DNA of 64,000 nucleotides from a bacterium (GCA_030697645.1 JAUYPI010000006.1:12017-76016), one strand, 5' to 3'. Counted from the stretch's first letter, positions 6,114-63,527 are shown. The notes: generated from the sequence alone by a model not told the origin. Numbers and translations: made by a program.

Positions 6114-6281
6114 ATGGATACCCCTTTCTTGATTGGGTTTTCTATAATCACAAAGGTCGGCCCCTAAACAATGTCTGAACAGTGTACTGAGCTCTGATTT
6201 CAGAGTACCACAAAAAAAGTTTTTGAGGAAGGCCCTCGGAGCATTGGAATTCCACAGGCTACTTTGTATACTAAAAGCACG

Positions 6282-7520
6282 ATGCCGTTTTTTAGCGCCA
6301 CTCACAGAGCCGCGAAGCACCGGCAGGTGCCCGTTGCGCTTTTTGATATCGGAAGCGGGAGCGTGCACAGCGCGCTTGCGTACTTGAGCCGCGGGGAAAA
6401 TGCCGAGGCGCGGCTCGTCTATGGCGCAGGCGAAGACTTTATGTTCCATGAACACGTGCAGGCTGCACGCCTCGACCGAGCGATGTTAGCGGCGCTTGAA
6501 AAAGTTGCCGCCGAGCTCTCACGGGCAGCGCACGAGCGGGGTGAGAGCATTCGGCACGCAATGCTCACGTTTTCCGCACCATGGTATATTGCGGAGACAA
6601 AAATTTTATATTACAAACATGATACGCCGATCGAGATCACGGCTGCGACCATTGACGCCTTGATCGAGGAGGCGTGGCGGCGCTTCGGCACGACTCCCTC
6701 GACAATCCCACACGCTCGCGGCGAGCGGGAAGCAGGAGATGAAAGCACTCTGATCGAGCAATCTATCGCCCGCGTTGCACTCAATGGCTACCCCACCCGC
6801 TCACCGGTTGGGAAGGTCGCGTGCACGCTCGAGATTGCGCTCTACTTAAGCAGGATATCCCGGAGCACCCTTGAGGCAATAGATGCCGTCCTTGCCCGCA
6901 CGATGCCGGGCGCCTCTGCAGTGCCCCACTCTGAAGCACTCGTGCTCTCTTCGGTGCTCCGCGGCCTCTTTCCGGCGCACGAAGATTTTTTGCTCTGCCA
7001 CGTCGGCGCAGAGATGACCGAACTTGCCCTGGTGATCGAGGGGGTGCTACTTGAGACCGTATCATTCCCCTACGGATCGCATACACTCGTGCGGGAGCTC
7101 TCAAGCGCCACGAAGAGCGTCCCTGCGGCGACACTCTCGCTGCTCTCGCTCGACCCAAAAGATATGGATGAGAAAACGACACGTCGTACAAGCGAGGCTA
7201 TCCGCACGCTCGGCGAGCGCTGGTTCGCCGAGCTTTCTCGCTCGCTCGCTTCCTTGACAGACACGCACGGCCTCATGCCAACCTGGTGTATGGTGCTTGC
7301 TGAAAATATGGCAATGACGGAGCGATTTCGGCAGTTTATTCTCGGTGAGGGATCTGCGTCAGCGTTTCTTGGTGGGGGTATACTGCACCCCACGATGATC
7401 CCGGAACAGGCACTTGCGACCAAGCTCACCTGCGAGGTAAGCGCCGCGCCCTGCATGCGCGACATATCCCTTGCCTGTGAGGCAATTTTTGCGCAATCCA
7501 CGCTGTTATCCACAAGGTAG
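6282..7520 (+). CDS. Actin-like (ASKHA) ATPase, FtsA/PilM-like
   Basis: FDIGSGSVHSA (phosphate-1-like) and LCHVGAEMTELALV (phosphate-2-like). ATG at 6282 lies 9 nt after a TATACT box. The tracked TTG start at 6264 overlaps that box. Confidence 0.4.
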   Translation: MPFFSATHRAAKHRQVPVALFDIGSGSVHSALAYLSRGENAEARLVYGAGEDFMFHEHVQAARLDRAMLAALEKVAAELSRAAHERGESIRHAMLTFSAPWYIAETKILYYKHDTPIEITAATIDALIEEAWRRFGTTPSTIPHARGEREAGDESTLIEQSIARVALNGYPTRSPVGKVACTLEIALYLSRISRSTLEAIDAVLARTMPGASAVPHSEALVLSSVLRGLFPAHEDFLLCHVGAEMTELALVIEGVLLETVSFPYGSHTLVRELSSATKSVPAATLSLLSLDPKDMDEKTTRRTSEAIRTLGERWFAELSRSLASLTDTHGLMPTWCMVLAENMAMTERFRQFILGEGSASAFLGGGILHPTMIPEQALATKLTCEVSAAPCMRDISLACEAIFAQSTLLSTR

Positions 7521-7580: not shown

Positions 7581-7680
7581 TTTAATTTTCAAGTCTCAAT
7601 TTCCAATTTTCAATCAATTTTCAATTACTCAATTTTCAAACACGACGTCGTTCGTTATTGAAAATTAGAAATTGAAAATT
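7581..7680. repeat. AATTTTCAAT-family palindromic spacer (E-family), copy 1
   Basis: Tandem aattttcaa(t) words, central aaacACGACGTCGT (7641-7650), then the complementary attgaaaatt words. Ends 9 nt before the ATG at 7690. Confidence 0.8.
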
Positions 7681-7689
7681 GCACACGCT

Positions 7690-9636: not shown

Positions 9637-9771
9637 TTAATTTTCAATGCTCAATTTTCAATCAATTTTCAATGACCCAATTTTCAAACACGACGTCGTA
9701 CCGGCGCCGTCATTAAGTCATTGAAACATTGAAAATTTATTGGAAATTGCAAAATTGAAAATTGAAAATTT
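9637..9771. repeat. E-family palindromic spacer, copy 2
   Basis: aattttcaat words, core CGACGTCG at 9691-9698, then cattgaaacattgaaaatttattggaaattgcaaaattgaaaattgaaaattt. Ends 6 nt before the rpsM ATG. Confidence 0.85.
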
Positions 9772-10171: not shown

Positions 10172-10308
10172 TTAATTTTCAATTATCAATTATCAATTTT
10201 CAATCAATTTCCAATGAACCAATTTTCAAACACGACGTCGCCGCCACTCAGTCATTCATTGAAACATTGAAAATTTAATGAAAATTGAAAATTGTAAATT
10301 GAAAATTT
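10172..10308. repeat. E-family palindromic spacer, copy 3
   Basis: Same architecture, core cacgacgtcg at 10231-10240. Right arm ends 6 nt before the rpsK ATG. Confidence 0.85.
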
Positions 10309-10752: not shown

Positions 10753-10888
10753 GAAATTTCCAATTTTCAATTTTACAATTTCCAATCAATTTTCAATGTG
10801 TCAATGATGCAATGACGGACGACGTCGTGTTTGAAAATTGGGTCATTGCAAAATTGATTGAAAATTGAAAATTGAGACTTGAAAATTA
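10753..10888. repeat. E-family palindromic spacer, copy 4 (inverted orientation)
   Basis: Reads caatgacggacgacgtcgtgtttgaaaattggg, the reverse complement of the core in the other copies. Confidence 0.85.
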
Positions 10889-11547: not shown

Positions 11548-11675
11548 AAATTTTCAAGGCTCAATTTTTAATTTTCAATCAATTTTCAATGAACTAATTT
11601 TCAAACACGATGTCGTCCGTCGTTGAGTCATTGAAACATTGAAAATTTATTGAAAATTGCAAAATTGAAAATTCT
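11548..11675. repeat. E-family palindromic spacer, copy 5
   Basis: Same word structure with a slightly degenerate core cacgatgtcgtccgtc. Confidence 0.8.
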
Positions 11676-14108: not shown

Positions 14109-14172
14109 AGAAAATGATGTAGAGACACGCAGCAAGCAGAACGTCCTCAGCATCAAAACCTAAATGCCGATA

Positions 14173-14284
14173 AAATTTTCAATTATCAATTTTCAATTTT
14201 CAATCAATTTTCAATTTCTCAATTTTTCAAACACAACGCCGACGTCGTCCATTGAAAATTGTAAAATTGAAAATTGAAAATTTA
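14173..14284. repeat. E-family palindromic spacer, copy 6
   Basis: aattttcaat words, core CGACGTCG at 14240-14247, short right arm ending 6 nt before the rpsI ATG. Confidence 0.8.
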
Positions 14285-14290
14285 AACTGT

Positions 14291-14713
14291 ATGCCTTCCT
14301 CAACCACCCCCAAACCCAAGAAATCCGACCGCTACATCGAGGCAGTTGGCCGCCGCAAGACGGCGATTGCGCGCGTGCGGATCTCACCTGCTTCAAAAAC
14401 GAACGTCTTGATCAACGACCGCTCGATCGAATCGTACTTTCCAGTGGCCACCCTTGCGCAGAGTGTCCTCTCGCCGCTTGCGCTCGCGCCGTCGGCGCAT
14501 TTTAGCGTAAGCGTCCATGTTGTCGGCGGGGGCATTCGCGGCCAGGCAGAGGCGGTGCGCCACGGTATCGCGCGCGCGCTCACGCTCTCGAGCGCTGATC
14601 TCCGGACCCCTCTGAAGCGCGCTGGATTTCTCACGCGTGATCCTCGTGCCAAGGAGCGGCGCAAATTCGGGCTCAAAAAAGCGCGCAAGGCACCGCAATG
14701 GAGTAAACGATAG
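14291..14713 (+). CDS. rpsI: Ribosomal protein S9
   Basis: YIEAVGRRKTAIARV ... GGGIRGQAEAVRHGIARAL ... RDPRAKERRKFGLKKARKAPQWSKR. The tracked start at 14252 is inside the repeat, so ATG 14291 is preferred. Confidence 0.9.
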   Translation: MPSSTTPKPKKSDRYIEAVGRRKTAIARVRISPASKTNVLINDRSIESYFPVATLAQSVLSPLALAPSAHFSVSVHVVGGGIRGQAEAVRHGIARALTLSSADLRTPLKRAGFLTRDPRAKERRKFGLKKARKAPQWSKR

Positions 14714-14766: not shown

Positions 14767-14887
14767 AAATTTTCAATTATCAATTTTCAATCAATTTTGC
14801 AATGAATCAATTTTCAAACACGACGTCGTCCGTCACTCAGTCATTGAAACGTTGAAAATTCATTGAAAATTGCAAAATTGAAAATTA
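14767..14887. repeat. E-family palindromic spacer, copy 7
   Basis: Same architecture, core cgacgtcg at 14821-14828. Ends 9 nt before the grpE ATG. Confidence 0.85.
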
Positions 14888-15500: not shown

Positions 15501-15648
15501 AATTTCCAATTTTCAATTTTGCAATTTTCAATCAATTTTCAATTATCCAATTTTCAAACACGACGCCGACGACGTCCGTCATTGAGTCATTGAAACATTG
15601 AAAATTCATTGGAAATTGAAAATTGTAAATTGAAAATTAAGAAATAAT
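15501..15648. repeat. E-family palindromic spacer, copy 8
   Basis: Same architecture with a duplicated core cacgacgccgacgacgtccgtc. Confidence 0.85.
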
Positions 15649-18915: not shown

Positions 18916-20202
18916 TTAGAGGCTACATGCTACAAAGAACTGTTCAATCGATGTAGACCAACGGGCTGTATGCATGCAGTAAAATTGCGGACCGTCAGGA
19001 ACATGTTTGTCAACGATCGTGCGTAACTCGGCGCCCGTAATAGATGCCGCGGCGAGTTGCCCCTCGGCGGTGAGCAGTTTTCCTAGATGCCGTAGAGTGC
19101 CGTAGGTAGACCCGCGATCTCGACGGAAATCCTCGATGGAACAGCCCGTATGCGCACGAAGCGTCTCCGGCGTGATCGAGCTCGACTCAAGGAGATTAGC
19201 TAGGCAGTCGAGGAGGCCCGGCACATGCAAAAAGAATGATGGGAAGCGGTACGCTGCCGCTCCCCGATTGATGCGTATCAGCGTTCCTCGATCGCCGAAC
19301 AGAGCACTCGACGGTTCAAAGCGTGGTAATCGCTCGCCCTCCGTCGTGCAGAGCGTGAGCGTTGTTTCAATGAATTCCGGCCGTAAGATACCAGTCAGAA
19401 ATTTAAACTTCCGTTTTTGTCCGCGGAAGAACACCTTGTGGAAGAGCGCGAAGCAGTGCGCCATGCAGCGATGTTTATACGGAAGCCGCGTATTCGTTTC
19501 GACAGCGCAGAAAGGGGGGATGCCGCAGAGCCGCGACATGGTGACAATGGTCCGCATGAATTCTGGATCGCCGTGGTACAGCTCGTCGCGAAACAATGAA
19601 GCGAGCTCGCCACTCACATGGCACACTTCGGTAAAGTCTGATGTCCCATACGGCTCCCCACGCCCCGGAATAAACCGCATACTCACCCATTCCTCTATCA
19701 AAGGCGGACTGTGTTCAATACCGTGCCCCGCGGGTTCCATCGCATGCGGCTCGCGAATTTCACCGTAGAGCGGGTACTCGACATTGAGCAGGTACACGAG
19801 GCTTTTGGTATCGAACTCGTCGAGCGGCGGGCAATCGCCGTAGCGATTATACGAGCTGCGGCAGGCGAGTGTCAGACGGAGTGCGGATTCGTTGGTCCAG
19901 CATGGATCGTAGAGTGGCTTCGCCACATATATGGTTAACGTCGTGTGCCCGAACCGCTCGCATGCACACGGCGTCAGTGATTCTCTACATTCACGGCCAA
20001 GAGCGATGACTTGTTCCAGTGGGGGCTGCGGTACTATGGAAACGTATAGCTCACTCTGCTGCGGCAAAAGGTAGGGAACTGTGCGCATGTGGTGTCCTTT
20101 CTTTTGATTATGGGTAGCATACAAGAACGGCCCGTGGCCATCTTTTTTGGAACTCGTGTCTGGTCTGAGATACAGTCTAGAGTGCCGAGATTCATTTGTC
20201 AA
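18916..20202 (-). CDS. Hypothetical protein (faint LuxI/FeeM-type N-acyltransferase-like pattern)
   Basis: 428-aa ORF; the start could be the internal MRTVPYLL at 20088. DEFDTKSLVYLL, VSMRFIPG and TMSRLCG loosely recall autoinducer/N-acyl-amino-acid synthase motifs. Very tentative. Confidence 0.45.
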   Translation of the reverse strand: MTNESRHSRLYLRPDTSSKKDGHGPFLYATHNQKKGHHMRTVPYLLPQQSELYVSIVPQPPLEQVIALGRECRESLTPCACERFGHTTLTIYVAKPLYDPCWTNESALRLTLACRSSYNRYGDCPPLDEFDTKSLVYLLNVEYPLYGEIREPHAMEPAGHGIEHSPPLIEEWVSMRFIPGRGEPYGTSDFTEVCHVSGELASLFRDELYHGDPEFMRTIVTMSRLCGIPPFCAVETNTRLPYKHRCMAHCFALFHKVFFRGQKRKFKFLTGILRPEFIETTLTLCTTEGERLPRFEPSSALFGDRGTLIRINRGAAAYRFPSFFLHVPGLLDCLANLLESSSITPETLRAHTGCSIEDFRRDRGSTYGTLRHLGKLLTAEGQLAAASITGAELRTIVDKHVPDGPQFYCMHTARWSTSIEQFFVACSL

Positions 20203-20248
20203 AAATATGCACTGGCACCTTTCGCTTTCGTGAGTTTATGGCTATCAT

Positions 20249-21553
20249 ATGGTAATGTCCTCGGAGCGTCATGGACAGCACAAGGGGCGACTTATGGGCA
20301 AGCCCGTGCTGATCGGTGCTGCCCGAGCGCACCGAAGCGGCAGCGTCCGCTATCTTAAAAACGGCACCGCATGTATCAAAATTCCTGACATAAGCGAGAT
20401 ACGCATTCCACGTGCGCGGCAATTTGATCTCACCGAGGCTACGATCTTCGGGCTTAACGAACGTTTGACTTCTACTGCCGCTTCACCAATTGTTGGTGCT
20501 CGGGGCAGGATGCAGAAAACGCTTCGCGACGTGTTCAACGCCGAGTGGCAGAGGTATGCGAGAGCCTTGGAGCGCGCCGAGGACGCCGGTTCTTTTAACT
20601 ACGGCATCTATGCTCTGTATCGAGGCGAACAGACCCTTGTGCGTTACGCGTCGCCCAAGTGGCACCGGATCGTTGCTATCGCCAGCAGCTCCACGCTGCT
20701 CACCGATCCTCGGCGAGAACTCAGCTGGCAGGAGGTACAGTCGTGTTTCGCGAAGACAACGATCGCGGTTGCAGGCGGGAGCGTCGGTGGTAATGTGCTC
20801 CACTGTGCGGTGATGGACATGCGTCCGGCCGCGGTTAAAATCGCGGACAAAAGCGTGTATAAAATGGAAAATATTAATCGCGTACGGCTTCGCTACGATG
20901 AACTTGTTTCGTCAAATGAACACCGCTCCTCTCTTGCCGAGACGCTCCTGCGCAACAAGGCAGAAGTATTGGCGACGCAACTCTACGCGATAGATCCGTT
21001 TTTGAGAGCGTATGTGTATGCAGAGGGCATTACGCACGAGACACTTGGGCCGTTTCTCGACGGTACCGGCCGAGAACCCGCAGTGGATATCATCGTCGAG
21101 GAAGTAGATGACCCTCGTACCAAAATCTTACTCCGCGAAGCCGCGCGCGAGCGGCGCTTGCCGCTCATCATGGTCTCTGACTTTGGGTCCGCGGTGCAAC
21201 TCGATGTCTCGCGATATGACCTCAACCCATCGGCACCGCTCGCGTACGGTACGGAAGATGCGCTCCTTCGTACGCGCACTGATGCATTGTATGAACGAGT
21301 CGGTGACCGCGACGCTTTTTTTGATTTTGTCGATGCGCTCGCCGGCACCGACTATCGCACTGGTGAGCTCGCGGCGATTCTTCGAGGCTCGTGCGAAATC
21401 CCTACTTCCACCATCATACCGCAACTCGGCTCAACCGCCGCGATGGCAGGCGCCATCGCGGCGGAAACCATAGCGCGTGTACGCCTAGGACATCGCTATC
21501 CATCGCGCGTCGTTATGAATAAGCACACATGTGCCGTGAAGCGATATGAGTGA
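20249..21553 (+). CDS. ThiF/MoeB/HesA-family E1-like adenylyltransferase with ~170-aa unknown N-terminal domain
   Basis: Rossmann motif TIAVAGGSVGGNVLHCAV..IADKSVYKMENINR and DIIVEEVDDPRTKILLREAARERRLPLIMVSDFG match the ThiF nucleotide-binding core. Confidence 0.65.
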   Translation: MVMSSERHGQHKGRLMGKPVLIGAARAHRSGSVRYLKNGTACIKIPDISEIRIPRARQFDLTEATIFGLNERLTSTAASPIVGARGRMQKTLRDVFNAEWQRYARALERAEDAGSFNYGIYALYRGEQTLVRYASPKWHRIVAIASSSTLLTDPRRELSWQEVQSCFAKTTIAVAGGSVGGNVLHCAVMDMRPAAVKIADKSVYKMENINRVRLRYDELVSSNEHRSSLAETLLRNKAEVLATQLYAIDPFLRAYVYAEGITHETLGPFLDGTGREPAVDIIVEEVDDPRTKILLREAARERRLPLIMVSDFGSAVQLDVSRYDLNPSAPLAYGTEDALLRTRTDALYERVGDRDAFFDFVDALAGTDYRTGELAAILRGSCEIPTSTIIPQLGSTAAMAGAIAAETIARVRLGHRYPSRVVMNKHTCAVKRYE

Positions 21554-21556
21554 CCG

Positions 21557-22732
21557 TCACGGAGATGGCTCGTGTGTGAGGACAAGTTCCTCAAGCGGCA
21601 CCCGCGGCGCTCTCGGACGCAGTGCATGCGCCGGGTTGCGCAGGTAACCGGCACGAAACAACGCCGCAATGGGACGAAGCGTGCCAAGAGTGAGTGCAAA
21701 CATTTTATTGACGAGGGCGACTTCGACAAGCGCGGCATGAACCGCAACCGCAATGTCGGCGCTCGTGAGCTCGAGGAGGATGCGCTCGAGCATGCGGCCG
21801 GCAGCAAGCCAGTGGGCGACGTCGTTTTTTTTAATCGTGAGGATACCTATGAGCGGGGAGCTTTCAATCCCTGCTTTACCACCGAGCGCAAACCGGAGCA
21901 TATCGTCTGGCCTGAGCGCGCCCTCTCCGACAAGGCCGTCGTGGATACGTATCGCCTGCGTATCACTGAGGCCGAACCCTATTCCCGGCATGCCACGTCC
22001 TGCGTCGGTGTCGTTGTGGAGTAGCCAGTGACCGAGCTCGCGGCTAAAGCGTGGTGAGTTGAGGACGAAATTGTCAGCTTGCGCTTGAAATTCTGCAATC
22101 GCGCGCCGTCTGACGCCATCGGTGATGAGATGAATCTTCACGCCACTCTCGTGCATCGCGAGAATTTTTTTCATGAGCGCGTGCGGCATGTGTTTTTCTG
22201 GCAGAAATTCAGCCCGCGTCATTTTGCGTGTAAAAAGGGCTCGCATGAGAGCGTGTGCGCCTCGAGCATCCCGAAGCCCTGCATGCGCCGGCTCGTCAAA
22301 TAATATTTCGGCAAGGGGCACGTACCTCTGTTCACTCCGGGCAAGAGCGGGTTTGACCTCGGATAGAGCGGCGTTGCGTAGTCGTGCCGCTCGCGTGAGA
22401 CCGTAGTAGCTCGCCGCAATGAGAGCGTTCTCCACTGCCGCACCGATGCTGATAACCGACTGTCTGCCCGTCGGGTCAGATGCGGGAAGCACAAACCTGC
22501 GGTCGAGAAAAAACTGCAAGGCTGGATTTCGTTCTCTAGTTCTAAGAACGAATGCCCATGGTTGCGTGTTGTGTGTGCTCGGGGCACGCGAGGCGCAGCA
22601 GGCAAGATATCGCAGACGCCGCTCCGGCGTAAGCGCTCCAAATGCCTCGTATGAGAGCATCGTCTCGCACACTACCTTTTCCTGTACACGCTCACGCATA
22701 GGGGGCGACGCATTGAAGCCAGTATAGTACAC
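21557..22732 (-). CDS. Two-domain nitroreductase-fold FMN protein (Acg/SagB-like superfamily)
   Basis: 391 aa. ASRAPSTHNTQPWAFVL is the nitroreductase signature. The length implies a duplicated or extended fold. Confidence 0.6.
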   Translation of the reverse strand: MYYTGFNASPPMRERVQEKVVCETMLSYEAFGALTPERRLRYLACCASRAPSTHNTQPWAFVLRTRERNPALQFFLDRRFVLPASDPTGRQSVISIGAAVENALIAASYYGLTRAARLRNAALSEVKPALARSEQRYVPLAEILFDEPAHAGLRDARGAHALMRALFTRKMTRAEFLPEKHMPHALMKKILAMHESGVKIHLITDGVRRRAIAEFQAQADNFVLNSPRFSRELGHWLLHNDTDAGRGMPGIGFGLSDTQAIRIHDGLVGEGALRPDDMLRFALGGKAGIESSPLIGILTIKKNDVAHWLAAGRMLERILLELTSADIAVAVHAALVEVALVNKMFALTLGTLRPIAALFRAGYLRNPAHALRPRAPRVPLEELVLTHEPSP

Positions 22733-22968
22733 TATCGGTATGCAATATTATACTATAATCACAAGCGAGCGGAAAGCGAAAAGAGGTCTTTTCATTTTCC
22801 GCCAGCGCCGTGATTATATTCAAGCGAGCGAGCGACATGCGAGAGAGTATGCCCTCTCGCATGTCCGAGCGAGCGCAGAATATATGGCACGTATGCCATA
22901 TATACCCAAAAACATTCGCAAACCTGCTGCTTTTGGGTATATAACCAGAGCGTAACACCACGAAATGT

Positions 22969-24597
22969 ATGGAGTCACTTTCTACTGAGCTTCTTCTTGG
23001 CGCGCTCGCATTTAGCACCGCTGGCCTTCTCGGACTTGTTGTATTTTTGCGGGACAGAAAGAGCGCGACCCACCAACTATTCTTCGTGCTTGCCGTTTTG
23101 ATCGAAGCGTATATCGTCGTTAACTTTGTCTCGCTGCACCCGCCACGCACCACACCGGAGAGCCAGCTCTTCTGGATCCGGATGGTCATGTTCGTCGTGT
23201 CATATATCGGACCGACGCTCCTTTTGCTCGTCACGACGTTCCCCGCGAAGCGAATTCGTCTCTCGTGGCGCTTGCTCGTGCCAGTGGGTATGCTCATGGT
23301 CGCTTCCGCCGCCGCCTCTCTTTTGCCGTTCGTGTTTTCGTCAATCCACTATCCGGAAGGTGAGCCGATCCCCATTCCCGGCCCCGGCATATTTGTCTTT
23401 GCGGCAGACTTCGTCGGCCTTTTTATTCTCAGCTTTGTCGTTCTATTGGTTCGTTATCGCCGTGCAGTGGGACCAGAACGCTCCATGCTCAACTACCTCT
23501 TCTGGGGTGTAGTAGTGTCGTTCTCGCTCATGGCGATTTTCGCGTTTCTATTCGTTGTCGTCATCAAAACATCAGCGTTCGTCTTCCTCGGCCCTATTTT
23601 CCCGGTGATCCTTATGGCATCGATCGCTTATGCGATCGTTCGGCATAGGATGTTTAACATTCGTCTTATTGCTACTGAAGCGCTTGTCGTCTCCATCCTC
23701 ATCTTTCTCTTCGTGCGTTTATTTACTCGCCTCTCTACAACAGACATCGTCATCGACGCTACTATCTTTGTTCTCTCTGCGGTGTTCGGGGTGCTTGTGA
23801 TCCGTGGCGTCCACAGAGAAGCAGCGGCACGCGAGCGGATACAAAAACTTGCTGACGATCTCAGAGCGGCGAACGTTCGCCTCCAAGAGCTCGACCAGCT
23901 CAAATCCGAGTTTCTCTCACTTGCCTCGCACCAGATTAGGACGCCGATCTCAGTGATCAAAGGCTATGCATCCCTTCTTCTTGAAGGATCGATCGGGCCA
24001 CTCACTGAGCAGGTGCACGAGGCGGTGGATCGTATTTTTCGTTCAGGCAACGCGCTCGCGCTCATTGTAGACGACTTTTTGAACATATCACGCATCGAAC
24101 AGGGGCAGCTGAAGTATGATTTCGTCGAGATTGATCTTTCAGCCCTTCTGTCCCGCCTCGTCGAGGAGCAACGTTCGGTGTCTGAGAAGATAGGACTCAC
24201 ACTCGACCTCCACATGCAAACGGGGGAACCCGTCACCATACAGGGGGACGAAGGAAAAATTCGTCAGGTTGTCGCGAACCTCATCGACAATGCGATTAAG
24301 TACACGCCGCATGGGGGCATCACTGTGACGCTCGGAGGGCATGCTGAGGAGGGGTGCGTACACCTCTCGGTTTCTGACACCGGCATCGGCATAGCAAAAG
24401 AGACGATCCCAACGCTGTTCACCAAATTCGGCCGTGCAAAGAATGCGAGCGCACATAATGTCTCCGGCACTGGCCTCGGCCTCTACCTTGCAAGACAAAT
24501 TGTCCAGGCGCACGGCGGTAAAATTTGGGCCGAGTCCGAAGGGGAAGGGAAAGGCACAACCTTACATCTCGAGCTCCGCAAGCGGCTCCTATCGTAG
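22969..24597 (+). CDS. Membrane sensor histidine kinase
   Basis: 542 aa. About 7 N-terminal TM helices, HisKA H-box SLASHQIRTPISVIKGY, HATPase_c N/G boxes (NLIDNAIKYTP, DTGIGI, GTGLGLYLAR). Confidence 0.85.
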   Translation: MESLSTELLLGALAFSTAGLLGLVVFLRDRKSATHQLFFVLAVLIEAYIVVNFVSLHPPRTTPESQLFWIRMVMFVVSYIGPTLLLLVTTFPAKRIRLSWRLLVPVGMLMVASAAASLLPFVFSSIHYPEGEPIPIPGPGIFVFAADFVGLFILSFVVLLVRYRRAVGPERSMLNYLFWGVVVSFSLMAIFAFLFVVVIKTSAFVFLGPIFPVILMASIAYAIVRHRMFNIRLIATEALVVSILIFLFVRLFTRLSTTDIVIDATIFVLSAVFGVLVIRGVHREAAARERIQKLADDLRAANVRLQELDQLKSEFLSLASHQIRTPISVIKGYASLLLEGSIGPLTEQVHEAVDRIFRSGNALALIVDDFLNISRIEQGQLKYDFVEIDLSALLSRLVEEQRSVSEKIGLTLDLHMQTGEPVTIQGDEGKIRQVVANLIDNAIKYTPHGGITVTLGGHAEEGCVHLSVSDTGIGIAKETIPTLFTKFGRAKNASAHNVSGTGLGLYLARQIVQAHGGKIWAESEGEGKGTTLHLELRKRLLS

Positions 24598-29993: not shown

Positions 29994-31121
29994 CTATCGT
30001 GGAGAAGATGCAGGATTCGTCTGGCGGAGCGGGATCGTGAATCGTATGGTAGTGCCTTCGTTTTCAGCGCTGGTGAAATCCATCTTACCGCCGTGGTTTT
30101 CGACGATATTTTTCGCCATGTAGAGGCCGAGGCCGGTGCCGGCGGTAGCATAGAGTTTAGCATTTCTGGCGCGGAAGAATTGATCGAAGACCTGGCGCTG
30201 TTGCTCCTTCGGGATGCCAATGCCGGTGTCTGCGACGCTGACCTCGATGTCTCGCGCCTTCTTTCGTACGGTGAGCGCGACCGCACCTCCTTCAGGCGTA
30301 TATTTGATCGCGTTGTTGATAAGGTTGTCAATAACGATGCCGACTTTTTCTGCGTCGATCGAAATTGAGGGCAGCACGGAGGGCAGAGAGATTGAGAAAG
30401 CGACTCGCTTACGCTTGGCAACAGGACGCGTTGCGTTAACGACCTTTTCAATAATCGGCAGGAAATCCTGTTCCACCGGCACGAAGCCAAAGCGTCCTTC
30501 CTCGATGCGCGCAGTGTCGAGGAGGTCGCTAATGAGCTCTGTCGCAGTGACTGTCACCCCGAGGCTCTCATTGAGTATTTTGAGCTGTTCCTCACTGAGC
30601 GGCCCGAGTTCGCCGTCAACAAGCGACTGGAGCGACCAACGCACGCCTGTGAGAGGTGTCCGGAGCTGGTGCGCCGCGACTGAGACGAATTCTGATTTGA
30701 CGAGATCAAGGCCTTCGAGGCGCGTGTTCGCGCTCGAGAGCTCGATATCACGGCGCACGAGCACCTTGCCGACCTCGCTGAATTCACCCGCGACGCGGGA
30801 ATACTCATCGTTCGCCCGGGAGGACTCTCGGTCTTTGCGCACGAGAAGCCGTGCGCTATCGGTGTTCTCGTGAAGCCATACTTCGAGCTCTTGGTTGTGT
30901 TTGCTGAGCGTGCGCACGGCGCTGAACGCTGCCGTCGCCGCCCCCGCTGCAGTGAGGGCGGTGAGAGCGCCCCAGAGCACGCGGTTAAGCAGGCCTGCCG
31001 TTAAAATCGCGGCCGCAGTCACGAGCGGCGAGAGAAGGAGCGCGAGGGTAAGGCGGAGGCGGGGGGAGAGAGTAAAGATATTGCCGGCATGTTTGGGAAA
31101 GTGCATGGGAGTAAAATGCAA
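29994..31121 (-). CDS. Sensor histidine kinase
   Basis: 375 aa. Two N-terminal TM helices, coiled coil, H-box VSVAAHQLRTPLTGV, HATPase_c (NLINNAIKYTP, DTGIGI, GTGLGLYMAK). Confidence 0.85.
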   Translation of the reverse strand: MHFTPMHFPKHAGNIFTLSPRLRLTLALLLSPLVTAAAILTAGLLNRVLWGALTALTAAGAATAAFSAVRTLSKHNQELEVWLHENTDSARLLVRKDRESSRANDEYSRVAGEFSEVGKVLVRRDIELSSANTRLEGLDLVKSEFVSVAAHQLRTPLTGVRWSLQSLVDGELGPLSEEQLKILNESLGVTVTATELISDLLDTARIEEGRFGFVPVEQDFLPIIEKVVNATRPVAKRKRVAFSISLPSVLPSISIDAEKVGIVIDNLINNAIKYTPEGGAVALTVRKKARDIEVSVADTGIGIPKEQQRQVFDQFFRARNAKLYATAGTGLGLYMAKNIVENHGGKMDFTSAENEGTTIRFTIPLRQTNPASSPR

Positions 31122-31387
31122 AGTTCAAAGCGCAAAACGCAAAACAACAACGCAAAATAACACAGTAAAATTCGAATTTCCAACCAACAAGCTCCAAATC
31201 AAATAAATTCCAAGCTCCAACCAACAAGCTCCAAACAAATTTCAAATTCCAATGCATCAAATCTCAAACACGCACGTCGTGTTTGGAAATTGGATTTTGA
31301 ATATTGGGATTTGTTTGGAAATTGTTTTTTGGAAATTGGAGATTCGTTTTGCTTTTTGCACTGTTGTTTTTCGCTTTACACTTTGCG
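31122..31387. repeat. ~260-bp imperfect palindrome (CCAAATTTC/GCAAAAC word family) filling the HK-FIST spacer
   Basis: Centre aaacacgCACGTCGTGttt near 31268-31286. Outer arms gcaaagttcaaagcgcaaaacgc... and ...gcgaaaaacaacagtgc-type complement (cgctttacactttgc). Confidence 0.7.
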
Positions 31388-32590
31388 TTACTTCGTCCCA
31401 ATCCCCACAATCGTAATCGTCCCATTATGGAACAGCGTCGGCTCGGGTGCAGTGCCGCCGCCGATCGCGTGTATCGCGGGCGCGTACTCGCCGTAGCTTG
31501 CAATGCCGAGAAGCGGCGTATCACGCCCCACGATATCAAGAATAGCGTTGGTTTCGTCTTTGATCATAGCACCGAGGAGTTTTTTGCGTGAGATGCTCTC
31601 AAAGACGAGGAGGAGTTTCAGCGAGACGTGTGAGCGCTTCAAGCGCTCCATCAGGCCCTCGGTCGCGGTGCATGCAGCAGTCAGCGCTTTTTCTTTGCTC
31701 CCGATCATGAGACGAACCCGAGCGCCCTCGGGTATTGCCGCGGCGAGAGTGAGCGAACCGTCTTCTTCTGCCCTGAGGGGATTTCGGATGAGGTACTCAT
31801 CGCTCACGCCAGTGCGGACGCCAAGTGGGTAGCCGAGTGCCGAATGTGCGAGTGGCTCGGCGCGAAGTTTTGATAGATCTTCCCCGAAATAGTCTTCGTA
31901 GATAGACGCAGCTCTCCTTCCCTCGAGTTCAAAAACGCGCGTACCTTCTGCGCGCGTTACTCTCTGCGGTATGCCGACCGGTATCCAGCCGCCTTCGACG
32001 CCGATGCCGAGCACGCATTCGCCTGAGATCGCACAACCGACAAGAGCGTCGTCTCCAACGAGAGCGTCCCGGTACTGGAACGTCCGCTCGAACGTGAGCT
32101 CATCACTTGCCGCCACTCCGGCAGCCGGTATATTCGCACCGAGCACACTCTGCAAGCCCCCGAGCACCTCGGCAGCGCCGCCTCGGAGCATATTAGCGAA
32201 GAGGAGGAGTCCGACGAGCTCCCCGGTGGCGAGTTCCCTGATTTCTTGCCCTACGAGGGCGCCTGCGGCGCGGGCGCCGTTTTTCATGAGCCCCATACCG
32301 GAGGCGAATGTGACTGAGTCGCTCTCGAGCGCGACGACCGCTACCGTCTGGTCAACGGGGCCTTCATTCGTGAGGATCCCCGTGGCTGAACAGCCGACAA
32401 GGGGAGCGTTGCCGCTTGCGTCCCGCACGCCGCGGACGAGCGCCTCCTGGTCGTAGAGTGTAGAAGCGAATACCAAAAGCTGCGTCGGCCGCTCAACCCC
32501 CGCCCTCTCAAGGGCGCTCTGAGCTGCCGCAAAACCCGCTTGGTGCGCGTCGTGTTCTTTGGCGGTGCCGACTCCGACGATGAGAGACAT
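31388..32590 (-). CDS. FIST-domain signalling protein
   Basis: 400 aa. Overall pattern and its position between a receiver and a kinase fit FIST_N/FIST_C sensors. Assigned from memory. Confidence 0.5.
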   Translation of the reverse strand: MSLIVGVGTAKEHDAHQAGFAAAQSALERAGVERPTQLLVFASTLYDQEALVRGVRDASGNAPLVGCSATGILTNEGPVDQTVAVVALESDSVTFASGMGLMKNGARAAGALVGQEIRELATGELVGLLLFANMLRGGAAEVLGGLQSVLGANIPAAGVAASDELTFERTFQYRDALVGDDALVGCAISGECVLGIGVEGGWIPVGIPQRVTRAEGTRVFELEGRRAASIYEDYFGEDLSKLRAEPLAHSALGYPLGVRTGVSDEYLIRNPLRAEEDGSLTLAAAIPEGARVRLMIGSKEKALTAACTATEGLMERLKRSHVSLKLLLVFESISRKKLLGAMIKDETNAILDIVGRDTPLLGIASYGEYAPAIHAIGGGTAPEPTLFHNGTITIVGIGTK

Positions 32591-32605
32591 GGGGGATGAT
32601 GGCGC

Positions 32606-32781
32606 AACCGCTCACGCCTTAAAATTTTGCGCTCGAGCTTCGGCGTTTAGAAATAACAGTCGCCTCATTGACGAAAAACGCATAACTCGCCTGCGGGCTC
32701 AAACAGATGCGTTTTTCTATTCGGCTCCTTTATTTCCAAAACGCCTCTCGCTATGCGCAAAATTTTAAGGCGTGAGCGGTT
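32606..32781. repeat. Long palindrome with perfect 27-bp terminal arms
   Basis: AACCGCTCACGCCTTAAAATTTTGCGC (32606-32632) and its exact reverse complement (32755-32781). Inner arms GAAAAACGCAT/ATGCGTTTTTC. Confidence 0.85.
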
Positions 32782-32801
32782 CCGGCGTGAGAGTGGTTTG
32801 A

Positions 32802-33272
32802 CTACGTAATTCCGAGCAACTGCTCTATCTTCGCCACGATCTCGTTCGGCGATGTGTTCGCTTTGACAGCGTAGTCCGCAGCCCCGATCTGCCTTGCTTT
32901 CTCAAGGTCGTCTCGTTGACCGAGATTGGAGAGAATAAGCACGGGGATATGTTTCATCTTTTCATTCGCCTTGATCTCGCGCAGGAGCACGAAGCCGTCC
33001 TCGCCGGGAAGGATGAGATCAAGGCAAACGAGATTGATCGGCTTTTCGGCAAGGAGTGCGCGACCCTCTTCGACCGTCTCCGCCCGAAAGACGGTAAATT
33101 TCTGATCGTGGAGCTTTCGCTCAAGCATGCCGCCGAGAAACGGGTCGTCTTCAACAACGAGGAGCACAGCGCGAGTCTCCTCAGGTGAGATTTCTCGTGG
33201 AGCATCGCCTGATCCTGCCACACTGTCCGCACCGGGACCGGTGGCGCTCTCTTGAATGCTGTCATCATTCAT
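32802..33272 (-). CDS. Response-regulator receiver-domain protein
   Basis: REC pattern VLLVVEDDPFL ... CLDLILPGEDG ... ADYAVKA. ATG at 33272 (MNDDS) is preferred over the tracked 33398. Confidence 0.8.
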   Translation of the reverse strand: MNDDSIQESATGPGADSVAGSGDAPREISPEETRAVLLVVEDDPFLGGMLERKLHDQKFTVFRAETVEEGRALLAEKPINLVCLDLILPGEDGFVLLREIKANEKMKHIPVLILSNLGQRDDLEKARQIGAADYAVKANTSPNEIVAKIEQLLGIT

Positions 33273-33550
33273 AGAAGTATTGAGAGTATAACAAAGAGAG
33301 CGCACGGCGCACAAGGACACCCCTGTGTATAACGTGCGCTTGACAGGGGATGCAGGCCGCGTTACATTGTGATATAAGGTCAAAATGTTACATGTCAAAT
33401 GTCATGAACTCGGATTTCGAGCCCCGAATATTCGGATTTGGATAAGTCTTTTTTATCAGTTAATTTTTTACGCCGAGATCGCTTCGCACTGTCGTCCGCG
33501 CTCATCGAGGCGTCGGTAATTTCCGAAGCGATTCTCGCGTACCACATAGT

Positions 33551-34741
<1,191 letters not shown>

Positions 34742-34782
34742 CAATGGTAACCACCCACCAATAGTTCTGATTCGATTGGTCA

Positions 34783-34910
34783 AATTTTCAATTTTACAAT
34801 TTCCAATCAATTTTCAATGTGTCAATGACTCAATGACGGGCGAAGTCGTGTTTGAAAATTGGGTCATTGAAAATTCACTGAAAATTGAAAATTGTAAATT
34901 GAAAATTTCG
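34783..34910. repeat. E-family palindromic spacer, copy 9 (inverted orientation)
   Basis: caatgacgggcgaagtcgtgtttgaaaattggg. Additionally flanked by CCACCCACC / GGTGGGTGG. Confidence 0.8.
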
Positions 34911-37480: not shown

Positions 37481-37613
37481 TAATTTCCAATTTTCAATTT
37501 TGCAATTTTCAATCAATTTTCAATTATCTAATTTTCAAACACGAACGTCGCCGTGATTGAGTCATTGAAACATTGAAAATTTATTGAAAATTGAGCATTG
37601 AAAATTGAAAATT
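37481..37613. repeat. E-family palindromic spacer, copy 10
   Basis: Same architecture with core cacgaacgtcgcc. Ends 6 nt before the rplW ATG. Confidence 0.85.
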
Positions 37614-37619
37614 TCACCT

Positions 37620-62207: not shown

Positions 62208-63527
62208 ATGTCCTTAAAAAACGGCTTCGCACAACTTCCGATCATTATTATCATCGGCATCGTAATTCTTGGTGCGGGATTTGTGGTGGTACGCAAAAAT
62301 TTTCGCATGCCTCGGCTGATACTTCCCGTAGAGAAGCCAGGCCTTCCGATTCCGCAGCCAGCTCCGCTACCTTCTCCATCTCCTTCGCCGTCGCCGACGC
62401 CCTCTCCGTCACCCAGCCCTGCACCCACCCCATCTCCGCCGCCTCCCGGTTCCCAACCACCTTCGCCATCGCCGACACCTAACCCCGTTCCCGCCGGGAG
62501 CCTTAATGCGCAAAGCGCGAAAGGAATTTTTGCGCTCGACAGCGTCAAGGGGACGTACCGCGATAATGGTATTCGAAGCTATGATTTTGTAGCCGGATAT
62601 GCCTGGCGTATGGGCTGGTATAATTTTGAGTCCTCAAAGGGCGTGTACGATTTCGCAGCGCTGGATCACATTTTGGGGAAGCTTAACCCTCTCGGGAAAA
62701 AGCTTTCTCTGAATATGCTCTCTTCAAACAAAACCGAGCCGGCCTATATCACGGCAGAATCCGGGGTAACCACATGGACATTCACGGATCAAAATACCCG
62801 TCATGAGGATTATGGCAAACCCCAGGTAAAGCCGGTCCCATGGGATTCATATCTGCAATCGCGATTCAGCATATTCGCCGAAAAACTTGCGAATTACCAG
62901 TCGCCGAATCCAGCAGGAGGCACAATCGCACTTCGTGATAACCCGGCATTAGCTCAAATCATTGTAACCATTCCCGGTCTTGGCTCCATCCGCGAAGGAC
63001 CGGGGGGCGCAGCAACGCCAGAACTCTCAACGATGCCTGGGTATAGCCGTCAAGTTTTCATTGACGCTATCCTTGCCGCCCTCCGGGCGATTGCTCGAAA
63101 TTTCCCTCAAAAACCGATTTCAGTTCCTTTTTTTCATGTGACCGACACTACGACATCGCCGTCGCTGGATCAGACGATCCACGATGCTATTCAAGCGGAA
63201 TTTGATGGAGTAAAAAATCCGAAAGTCGGATATTTCCAAGAAAACCTGTCGGCCCTAAATACGACCGGAAGCATTCTTTGTTCGCCCGACGGGTCTCGCG
63301 ATCCTTTGAAGCTTGCAACAGGGAAAACGTGGCTCGCATTCCAAATGTTGCAATCGTGGGTAACTCCGTTTGCCAATCCGTCAAAAAACGCGGGTACAAT
63401 ACCCACAGATGCCATCAGCTGTGGAAACAGTCTCATGGGGATCACGTACTTTGAAGTGTATGTGCCGGATCTCGATAACGCCGCGTGGCACGCATCGTTT
63501 CGTGATTGGGCCGCGAAGTTAAAGTAG
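62208..63527 (+). CDS. Secreted protein with Pro/Ser/Thr linker and clan-A glycoside-hydrolase-like domain (tentative)
   Basis: 439 aa. N-terminal TM/signal. PSPSPSPTPSPSPSPAPTPSPPPP linker. WYNFESSKGVYDFAALDHILGKLNPLGKKLSL resembles the W..iEp..G.y.w..lD pattern of TIM-barrel GHs. Confidence 0.55.
   Translation: MSLKNGFAQLPIIIIIGIVILGAGFVVVRKNFRMPRLILPVEKPGLPIPQPAPLPSPSPSPSPTPSPSPSPAPTPSPPPPGSQPPSPSPTPNPVPAGSLNAQSAKGIFALDSVKGTYRDNGIRSYDFVAGYAWRMGWYNFESSKGVYDFAALDHILGKLNPLGKKLSLNMLSSNKTEPAYITAESGVTTWTFTDQNTRHEDYGKPQVKPVPWDSYLQSRFSIFAEKLANYQSPNPAGGTIALRDNPALAQIIVTIPGLGSIREGPGGAATPELSTMPGYSRQVFIDAILAALRAIARNFPQKPISVPFFHVTDTTTSPSLDQTIHDAIQAEFDGVKNPKVGYFQENLSALNTTGSILCSPDGSRDPLKLATGKTWLAFQMLQSWVTPFANPSKNAGTIPTDAISCGNSLMGITYFEVYVPDLDNAAWHASFRDWAAKLK

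Follow-up and report, generated by a model that had tools for sequence, protein, structure and literature searches.

Candidate N-acyl oxazolone enzymes and a seven-transmembrane sensor kinase form a conserved gene module in Patescibacteria

N-acyl oxazolones were discovered between 2020 and 2025; the authors speculate that they act as signals, and no receptor or regulator is known for them (PMC12856293; bioRxiv 10.1101/2020.06.11.147165). Here we describe a four-gene locus encoding remote relatives of the oxazolone enzymes together with a membrane sensor kinase. It lies in a 64,000-nucleotide stretch of DNA from a Patescibacterium (GCA_030697645.1, JAUYPI010000006.1:12017-76016), which we call the window; all coordinates count from its first letter. 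The window sequence is identical to a contig of the metagenome-assembled genome GCA_034376905.1.

In Pseudoalteromonas rubra, OxzA, an N-acyltransferase, and OxzB, a ThiF-nitroreductase fusion, produce tyrazolones, and 56 OxzB proteins have been reported from alpha-, beta- and gammaproteobacteria (bioRxiv 10.1101/2020.06.11.147165). The N-acyl tyrazolone pathway of Mycobacterium tuberculosis consists of TyzA, TyzB and TyzC (Rv2336, Rv2338c and Rv2337c): Tyr or Phe is N-acylated by TyzA, ring closure by TyzB, a ThiF homologue, uses ATP, and TyzC, an Acg-like flavin oxidase, carries out the desaturation with O2. TyzA carries no family annotation; among known structures it comes closest to FeeM (2G0B) and to BjaI, an N-acyl homoserine lactone (AHL) synthase (PMC10404671). 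The N-acyl tryptazolone pathway, TrzA/TrzS (Rv1356c/Rv1355c), is found in M. tuberculosis, M. smegmatis and Rhodococcus. Experiments showed that TrzS is both an ATP-dependent cyclase and an O2-dependent desaturase yielding N-acyl tryptazolone; its D217A substitution, in the adenylation motif, abolishes cyclisation, and R540A impairs the oxidase, R540 and Q651 both being residues of the flavin mononucleotide (FMN) pocket whose importance mutagenesis established (PMC12856293).

The window locus comprises the following features:

18916-20202, minus strand: open frame of 428 amino acids for a protein without assigned family (the unknown protein, UNK)
18916-20088, minus strand: likely UNK gene, 390 amino acids from ATG 20088, a candidate N-acyl amino acid synthase
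20089-20248, no strand: divergent spacer between UNK and E1, with promoter-like sites on both strands
20249-21553, plus strand: candidate ThiF/E1-like ATP-dependent cyclase (E1), 434 amino acids
21557-22732, minus strand: Acg-like tandem-domain monomer, a nitroreductase-fold FMN oxidase (FDO) of 391 amino acids, candidate C-alpha/C-beta desaturase
22733-22968, no strand: divergent spacer between the FDO and histidine kinase genes
22969-24597, plus strand: seven-transmembrane (7TM) sensor histidine kinase (HK) with HisKA_7TM, HisKA and HATPase_c domains; conserved as the fourth gene of the module

The UNK and E1 genes diverge, and E1 and FDO converge with their stop codons 3 nucleotides apart. 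A preliminary description of the window, made from its sequence alone, had reported the first three open reading frames (ORFs), two divergent and two convergent, and our ORF listing gave the same coordinates and orientations; the description had missed the 7TM kinase.

We read the three enzymes as a split and strongly diverged N-acyl oxazolone pathway of the OxzAB/TyzABC/TrzAS kind, with the tied 7TM kinase as its fourth gene, and assign this reading a probability of about 60%. UNK would N-acylate an amino acid with an acyl chain; E1 would then catalyse an ATP-dependent cyclisation, needing neither a Cys nor a ubiquitin-like partner, in which the amide oxygen closes the ring to an oxazolone; FDO, as an Acg-like FMN oxidase, would introduce the C-alpha/C-beta double bond; and the kinase, accompanied in many relatives by a single-domain CheY-like regulator, would sense the product or control its synthesis. 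The reading builds on gene content, linkage and fusions, on family and fold relationships and on the conservation of the adenylation and FMN-phosphate motifs; from these we infer which substrates are used, that the product is an oxazolone, in what order the steps run and what the kinase does.

As the preliminary description had suggested, we analysed co-occurrence of the genes across genomes. In a first set of 27 loci (26 from GTDB species genomes and one JGI contig), UNK lies immediately upstream of E1 in 24/24 loci with enough upstream sequence, FDO is tail-to-tail with E1 in all 27, and a 7TM histidine kinase adjoins FDO in each of the 25 loci with downstream sequence. A second set, obtained by a metagenome scan seeded with the 7TM sensor region alone, holds 47 loci; the enzyme genes stand beside the kinase in 42 of the 44 informative ones, 3 of the 47 having too little upstream sequence, and the two sets are not fully independent, some contigs coming from the same genomes. 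The kinase occurs without enzyme genes of the module in L060 (5 kb of upstream sequence) and L061 (2.6 kb upstream). Flanking genes vary among loci, with argS, dnaK-dnaJ, a REC gene or others upstream and bactofilin or others downstream, and therefore the conservation of the module is not mere synteny. Four gene families only, plus REC, are conserved around E1. The linkage of UNK, E1, FDO and HK is far beyond chance, and the module is widely conserved in Patescibacteria together with its sensor kinase. The combination, which the preliminary description called unusual for a reduced genome, is no peculiarity of this one.

The order and direction of the genes change while the set persists. Elsewhere UNK is co-directional with E1, its stop codon usually overlapping the E1 start, and only the window, among the loci compared, has UNK inverted and hence divergent from E1. 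In the compared loci the 3' ends of E1 and FDO overlap by 4-32 nucleotides, and the FDO/HK spacer measures 22-260 bp in most loci; in L027, HK is co-directional with FDO and overlaps the FDO start by 4 nucleotides. At least five arrangements exist: UNK+ E1+ FDO- HK+; E1+ FDO+ UNK+ HK+; UNK+ E1+ FDO+ HK+; FDO+ E1+ UNK+ HK+; and forms with HK co-directional with FDO. A CheY-like REC gene abuts the module in L003, L008, L015 and L027. In a second subfamily, which is more divergent, every gene points the same way and the set forms a REC-E1-FDO-UNK-HK operon (L069 1287-7919; L074 830-7845; also L062-L064, L070, L075 and L078); its E1 shares 30-41% identity with the window E1, and in its kinase an added GAF domain separates the 7TM region from HisKA. 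One further locus (L033 77-2964) is an exception in that the kinase gene comes immediately after E1 and no oxidase gene intervenes.

Gene fusions join the enzymes in both directions. A UNK-E1 fusion is present in two lineages (seen in L011, L027 and P0274), the two proteins forming a single ORF of 800-814 amino acids in L011, L027 and the NCBI protein MBM3213960, and an E1-FDO fusion is found in other phyla. The linkage and the fusions support the proposal of the preliminary description that the three genes form one small-molecule modification unit in which the E1 acts with the nitroreductase-fold enzyme. The description had left open a peptide as the substrate; the small-molecule part of its proposal stands, the identification with a peptide pathway does not, and the known analogue, OxzAB/TyzABC/TrzAS, was not named in it.

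The E1 protein consists of a ThiF-like fold at residues ~160-420 preceded by an extension of ~160 residues, in agreement with the ThiF-type E1 with an extra N-terminal domain described before. Its top NCBIfam match is the Rv1355c family NF005901 (E 5.6e-30, 104.2 bits, profile positions 36-328), the next NCBIfam model scoring 33 bits, the TcdA model 14 bits and the MoeB and ThiF models at most 25 bits. With Pfam ThiF (PF00899) it scores 26.5 bits, slightly under the gathering cut-off of 28.1, and most E1 homologues have a precomputed PF00899 match. BLASTP aligned it with two plasmid-borne proteins annotated by NCBI as Rv1355c family over ~270-300 residues at 27-28% identity (E 1e-19). Common to E1 and the Rv1355c-family proteins are an unusual GxSVG nucleotide loop, NxNR and the Asp of EE(V/C)D (D287 in the window), the adenylation-motif residue whose mutation removes TrzS cyclase activity. 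Searching the PDB with the E1 family profile found TcdA as the only family, with the Lys and Asp aligned. In an alignment of 22 E1 family members no Cys occurs among the invariant or near-invariant columns. At the N terminus, residues ~17-115 make up a lineage-specific stretch in which the motif TIFGLNERLT is invariant; this stretch is confined to the main subfamily, and the E1 of the second architecture lacks it. The protein is widespread and unusually conserved across orders of Patescibacteria, with more than 120 clusters at 50-62% identity. By these matches, E1 is a candidate equivalent of TyzB and of the ThiF domain in both OxzB and TrzS.

FDO matches the Acg family model NF047509 over its full length (E 4.8e-52, 177.4 bits against a cut-off of 199, profile positions 5-318 of 319), which confirms the two-domain FMN nitroreductase fold noted in the preliminary description. 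It also matches the C-terminal half (369-648) of the Rv1355c model NF005901 (E 5.8e-18, 64.5 bits) and scores 26.7 bits with Pfam Nitroreductase, above the cut-off of 23.5. The protein aligned to the Acg crystal structure 2YMV through the FMN motif RAPSxHNTQPW, which is kept across the FDO family and in Rv1355c-family proteins. The NCBI gene call has 380 amino acids, placing the likely start near 22699. E1 and FDO thus match the N- and C-halves of a single model and represent a known fusion whose parts are here encoded by separate genes; both (104.2 and 64.5 bits) fall below the NF005901 cut-off of 476 bits, a genuine fused member scoring 854 bits. FDO is, from these alignments, a candidate counterpart of TyzC and of the oxidase domains of OxzB and TrzS.

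UNK has to be placed differently. The alignment of its homologues begins only at residues 25-90 of the 428-residue frame, an AAAGGA Shine-Dalgarno-like motif stands ahead of ATG 20088 and a promoter-like TTGACA-17-TAGACT lies upstream of it at 20202-20174; for these reasons the protein probably starts at ATG 20088 and has 390 residues. The NCBI gene call gives 336. Word-indexed searches returned 2-4 relatives only, and an exhaustive HMMER search was required to recover the family, which comprises 245 clusters at 50% identity, nearly all of 330-410 amino acids. Scans against Pfam, NCBIfam and PADLOC assigned no family to UNK, whether it was scanned singly, with 25 homologues or with 128 homologues; stray weak matches to ANAPC2 and HTH_60 touched the C-terminal domain only. 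PF00765 (LuxI-type AHL synthases) and PF13444 (FeeM-type) matched none of the 128 family members, and UNK alignment profiles found nothing in the PDB at E <= 10. Profile comparison by hhalign gave no significant match with an Acetyltransf_5-like piece at the N terminus of another family member (P0163), with the gene downstream of a plasmid Rv1355c-family gene or with the N-terminal domain of a Kitasatospora ThiF protein; with the probable TrzA homologue of a Rhodococcus plasmid it also fell short of significance (E 0.033), aligning solely over SYxR(Y/H)G...EEW.

The predicted structure was more informative. An AlphaFold2 model, built from a five-sequence alignment (pLDDT 67.6, pTM 0.70, moderate confidence), predicts a GNAT/LuxI-FeeM-like domain at residues ~25-250 and a conserved, helical C-terminal domain of ~120 residues without assigned function. 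The predicted fold is nearest to AHL synthases and FeeM by two methods; LasI is the top Foldseek match (E 2.6e-3, probability 0.96), with BjaI, FeeM and EsaI among the weak matches. The faint LuxI/FeeM-like motifs that the preliminary description saw in UNK are therefore backed at the level of fold, sequence profile comparisons having failed or remained marginal. Near-invariant residues among the 128 members are R77, Y83-G84, D90-x-x-D93, E133-W134, R138, S185-R186 and C188; their order, R...DxxD...R...SR, resembles that of the LuxI signature, to which these residues may correspond. Fold and context together suggest that UNK is the counterpart of TyzA and OxzA.

Two family members are built unusually. 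P0163 (ENA contig, 460 amino acids) has an additional N-terminal half-domain before the normal UNK domain, residues 12-91, which matches Pfam Acetyltransf_5 (E 2.3e-7) and an NCBIfam exosortase-associated acyltransferase model (E 5e-16) and may have arisen by partial duplication or by fusion, or may reflect an error in gene calling. P0164 (PIT87916.1, 705 amino acids), from Magasanikbacteria, is annotated as a fusion of dihydroorotate dehydrogenase and UNK. It may be a read-through or mis-call and not a functional fusion, since the dehydrogenase gene directly precedes UNK in several loci (L018-L020, L023).

The window kinase scores above the Pfam cut-offs for PF16927 HisKA_7TM (37.8 bits), PF00512 HisKA (63.7) and PF02518 HATPase_c (104.2). 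Its 7TM sensor region has a mean identity of 52%, with many invariant residues. HK is a candidate functional partner of the pathway, as a sensor of its product or a controller of its synthesis. The Vibrio pairs LuxM-LuxN and CqsA-CqsS each consist of an autoinducer synthase and a membrane sensor kinase. In them, as in the window, enzymes for a small acyl-derived molecule are encoded beside a polytopic membrane histidine kinase, and the window acyltransferase candidate has a LuxI-like predicted fold. The comparison concerns mechanism only: the window has two more tailoring enzymes, ligand binding by its kinase is hypothetical, and the likeness is not based on homology of the sensor domains. We put forward only tentatively, as a possibility well short of even odds, that the module is a self-contained signalling circuit of Patescibacteria, in which the three enzymes would make an oxazolone-type or related N-acyl-amino-acid-derived signal, HK would be its dedicated receptor and the CheY-like regulator its output. 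If so, the candidate phyla radiation (CPR) would have a first candidate autoinducer/receptor pair of its own, and for natural oxazolones of any kind HK would be the first receptor candidate.

Each described oxazolone system shares a part of the window arrangement. With TrzA/TrzS the window has in common a ThiF-like cyclase together with an Acg-like flavin oxidase, with an adjacent acyltransferase candidate, the GxSVG loop and the adenylation Asp, and signalling genes nearby (c-di-GMP genes in mycobacteria, a histidine kinase here). It differs in that cyclase and oxidase are separate convergent genes of at most ~27% identity to TrzS, in its Patescibacterial host, in an acyltransferase candidate of a different sequence family that is ~130 residues longer, and in the extra N-terminal segment of E1. 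TyzABC likewise consists of three unfused genes with the acyltransferase gene divergent from the ThiF gene; TyzA and UNK are both nearest to FeeM and AHL synthase structures, and TyzC is a monomeric Acg-like nitroreductase-fold protein. However, tyzB and tyzC form an operon whereas E1 and FDO converge, UNK has no detectable sequence similarity to the Tyz acyltransferase class, and no kinase partner is reported for TyzABC. OxzA/OxzB also combines an N-acyltransferase with ThiF and nitroreductase-fold activities, ATP-dependent in Oxz, and its authors propose the products as possible signals, but OxzB is one fused protein and no dedicated sensor is known.

Two plasmid loci with Rv1355c-family genes came up in these comparisons. 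On a Rhodococcus qingshengii plasmid (L031 1653-5977), such a gene is divergent from that of a 260-residue hypothetical protein, the probable TrzA homologue, with a GGDEF protein adjacent, a neighbourhood that mirrors the c-di-GMP genes near trzAS in M. tuberculosis (PMC12856293). A Kitasatospora plasmid (NZ_CP108248; L030 4080-9066) encodes a 616-residue protein in which an N-terminal domain of 257 residues, unknown in kind, is joined to an Rv1355c-type ThiF domain with no oxidase domain (414 bits on NF005901); a ketoacyl-ACP synthase III follows and a LuxR-type regulator lies nearby. It may be another variant of ThiF-based small-molecule chemistry.

Several points weigh against an oxazolone pathway at this locus. 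Homology to the characterised enzymes is remote throughout, E1 having ~27% identity and FDO aligning in patches only; curated cut-offs are missed everywhere but for Pfam Nitroreductase and the kinase domains. Of the two models, FDO scores higher on Acg, a family of proteins without known function, and lower on Rv1355c, and the probable equivalents of TrzS R540 and Q651, mapped through two Rv1355c-family proteins, are not Arg and Gln in the Patescibacteria family, in a region that aligns ambiguously and where the numbering is uncertain. For UNK, the five-sequence model is only moderately confident, none of its Foldseek matches reaches E <= 0.001, and sequence comparison established no link to TyzA, TrzA or OxzA, hhalign giving E 0.033 with the probable TrzA homologue. 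As for physiology, Patescibacteria usually lack fatty-acid synthesis, which bears on the acyl donor, and many of them live without oxygen, which bears on the electron acceptor.

Some of these points fit an alternative in which the same three-enzyme logic of acyl transfer, carboxylate adenylation and flavin redox serves another substrate or leads to a product other than a free oxazolone. Conceivable products are an N-acyl dehydroamino acid, an amide or ester arising from attack of another nucleophile on the activated azlactone or adenylate, and a modified lipid or envelope head group. FDO being nearer to the uncharacterised Acg model, the FMN-pocket residues of TrzS not being evidently conserved, the lack of sequence relationship between UNK and known acyltransferase families together with its extra conserved C-terminal domain, and the lineage-specific segment of E1 with its invariant residues are all consistent with such a product. 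Yet the characterised systems with exactly these three enzyme types all make N-acyl oxazolones, and we regard a different product as a credible but distinctly weaker candidate. A more distant one is that E1 is a TcdA-like dehydratase acting on a macromolecule, either tRNA (t6A to ct6A) or the C terminus of a protein or peptide, with UNK and FDO as accessory housekeeping enzymes. TcdA (CsdL, the tRNA t6A dehydratase) resembles E1 in being ThiF-like, in activating a carboxylate with ATP, in closing an oxazolone-type ring and in having no ubiquitin-like partner. Sequence and profile searches of the PDB detected TcdA chains and no other protein, the conservation of E1 is unusual for a Patescibacteria protein, and the flanks carry housekeeping genes (ribosomal, chaperone, tRNA-synthetase). 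Those flanks, however, vary from locus to locus around a constant set of four genes; E1 scores 14 bits with the TcdA model against 104 with the Rv1355c family; TcdA acts on tRNA in systems with neither an FDO nor a LuxI-like acyltransferase; and fusions bind E1 to the acyltransferase-like protein, so that we consider a TcdA-like role improbable.

Plain housekeeping function is less probable still. Under it E1 would be a sulfur-carrier adenylyltransferase of the MoeB/ThiF kind, FDO a generic nitroreductase and UNK an orphan, their genes held together by inherited synteny only, as could be supposed from database names such as 'molybdopterin/thiamine biosynthesis adenylyltransferase' and from all loci belonging to one bacterial superphylum. 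But the E1 family has no invariant Cys and no MoaD/ThiS-like neighbour, the MoeB and ThiF models stay at or below 25 bits, the linkage persists through at least five rearrangements with changing flanks, and fusions occur both ways, UNK-E1 here and E1-FDO elsewhere. The possibility raised in the preliminary description of a MoeB with a generic nitroreductase lacking conserved linkage is excluded. Least probable of all is the analogy which that description drew, a thiazole/oxazole-modified microcin (TOMM) type of azoline/azole pathway for ribosomally synthesised peptides, or another peptide modification, with E1 as the docking or activating partner and FDO as the azoline dehydrogenase. The description itself had seen neither a YcaO nor a precursor peptide; more than 70 loci likewise hold no YcaO and no conserved small ORF in or beside the module, and no YcaO was found among the ten large window ORFs scanned. 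The module genes overlap or abut, so that a conserved precursor gene would have no space between them. By type, the oxidase is a tandem monomer like Acg and not a SagB/McbC protein, and the third partner is, by predicted fold, a GNAT/LuxI-like acyltransferase. With no invariant Cys, YcaO, ubiquitin-like protein or conserved small ORF in those loci, neither the TOMM nor the thio-cofactor analogy fits. A split oxazolone pathway accounts best for the module as a whole.

Relative to the described systems, the phylum, the split convergent architecture, the candidate new acyltransferase family, the extra E1 segment and the co-inherited sensor kinase are new. Within the literature library searched, no paper joins oxazolone with Patescibacteria or CPR terms, and the Tyz and Trz papers mention neither Patescibacteria/CPR phyla nor a kinase partner (PMC10404671, PMC12856293). 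Here the candidate biosynthetic genes are firmly coupled to a 7TM kinase of high conservation, in many cases accompanied by a CheY-like protein, and this provides a testable candidate for the missing oxazolone partner. A functional hypothesis is gained for the Pfam-less UNK family, and E1-like genes now named 'molybdopterin/thiamine biosynthesis adenylyltransferase' would call for re-annotation. Patescibacteria have tiny genomes and are thought to be nearly devoid of specialised metabolism. A conserved three-enzyme small-molecule pathway in them would bear on how these episymbionts sense, or communicate with, hosts and kin.

In the window, the module is neighboured by dnaK-dnaJ on one side and, beyond the histidine kinase, by trpS and fusA on the other. 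Its GC content is that of the surroundings, and for this reason we rejected a horizontal-transfer island; a defence system was rejected after a PADLOC scan. The REC gene nearest to the module lies 9 kb off, in a second and separate signalling group (REC-FIST-HK). This group, on the minus strand at 29994-33398, encodes that REC protein (32802-33398), a FIST protein (31388-32590) and, at 29994-31121, a histidine kinase that is cytoplasmic and of HisKA/HATPase type. Large window ORFs without a Pfam domain lie at 6264-7520, 42935-44524, 45238-46854, 47885-49915 and 62208-63527.

A Rfam scan of the whole 64 kb gave no family at the gathering score. The window holds at least ten copies of a palindromic intergenic element of ~110-135 nucleotides, located between ribosomal-protein, grpE, dnaK and tuf genes, at about 7597-7681, 9638-9771, 10173-10308, 10761-10874, 11562-11674, 14173-14283, 14767-14887, 15507-15639, 34782-34908 and 37488-37614. 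It belongs to no Rfam family, and none of the copies lies within the UNK-E1-FDO-HK module. Its arms consist of tandem CAATTTT / AAAATTG units flanking a short GC-rich core, and ATTGAAAATTG occurs 76 times with at most one mismatch, against 1.4 expected. The copy at 14165-14300 has a folding energy of -25.7 kcal/mol (z = -4.5).

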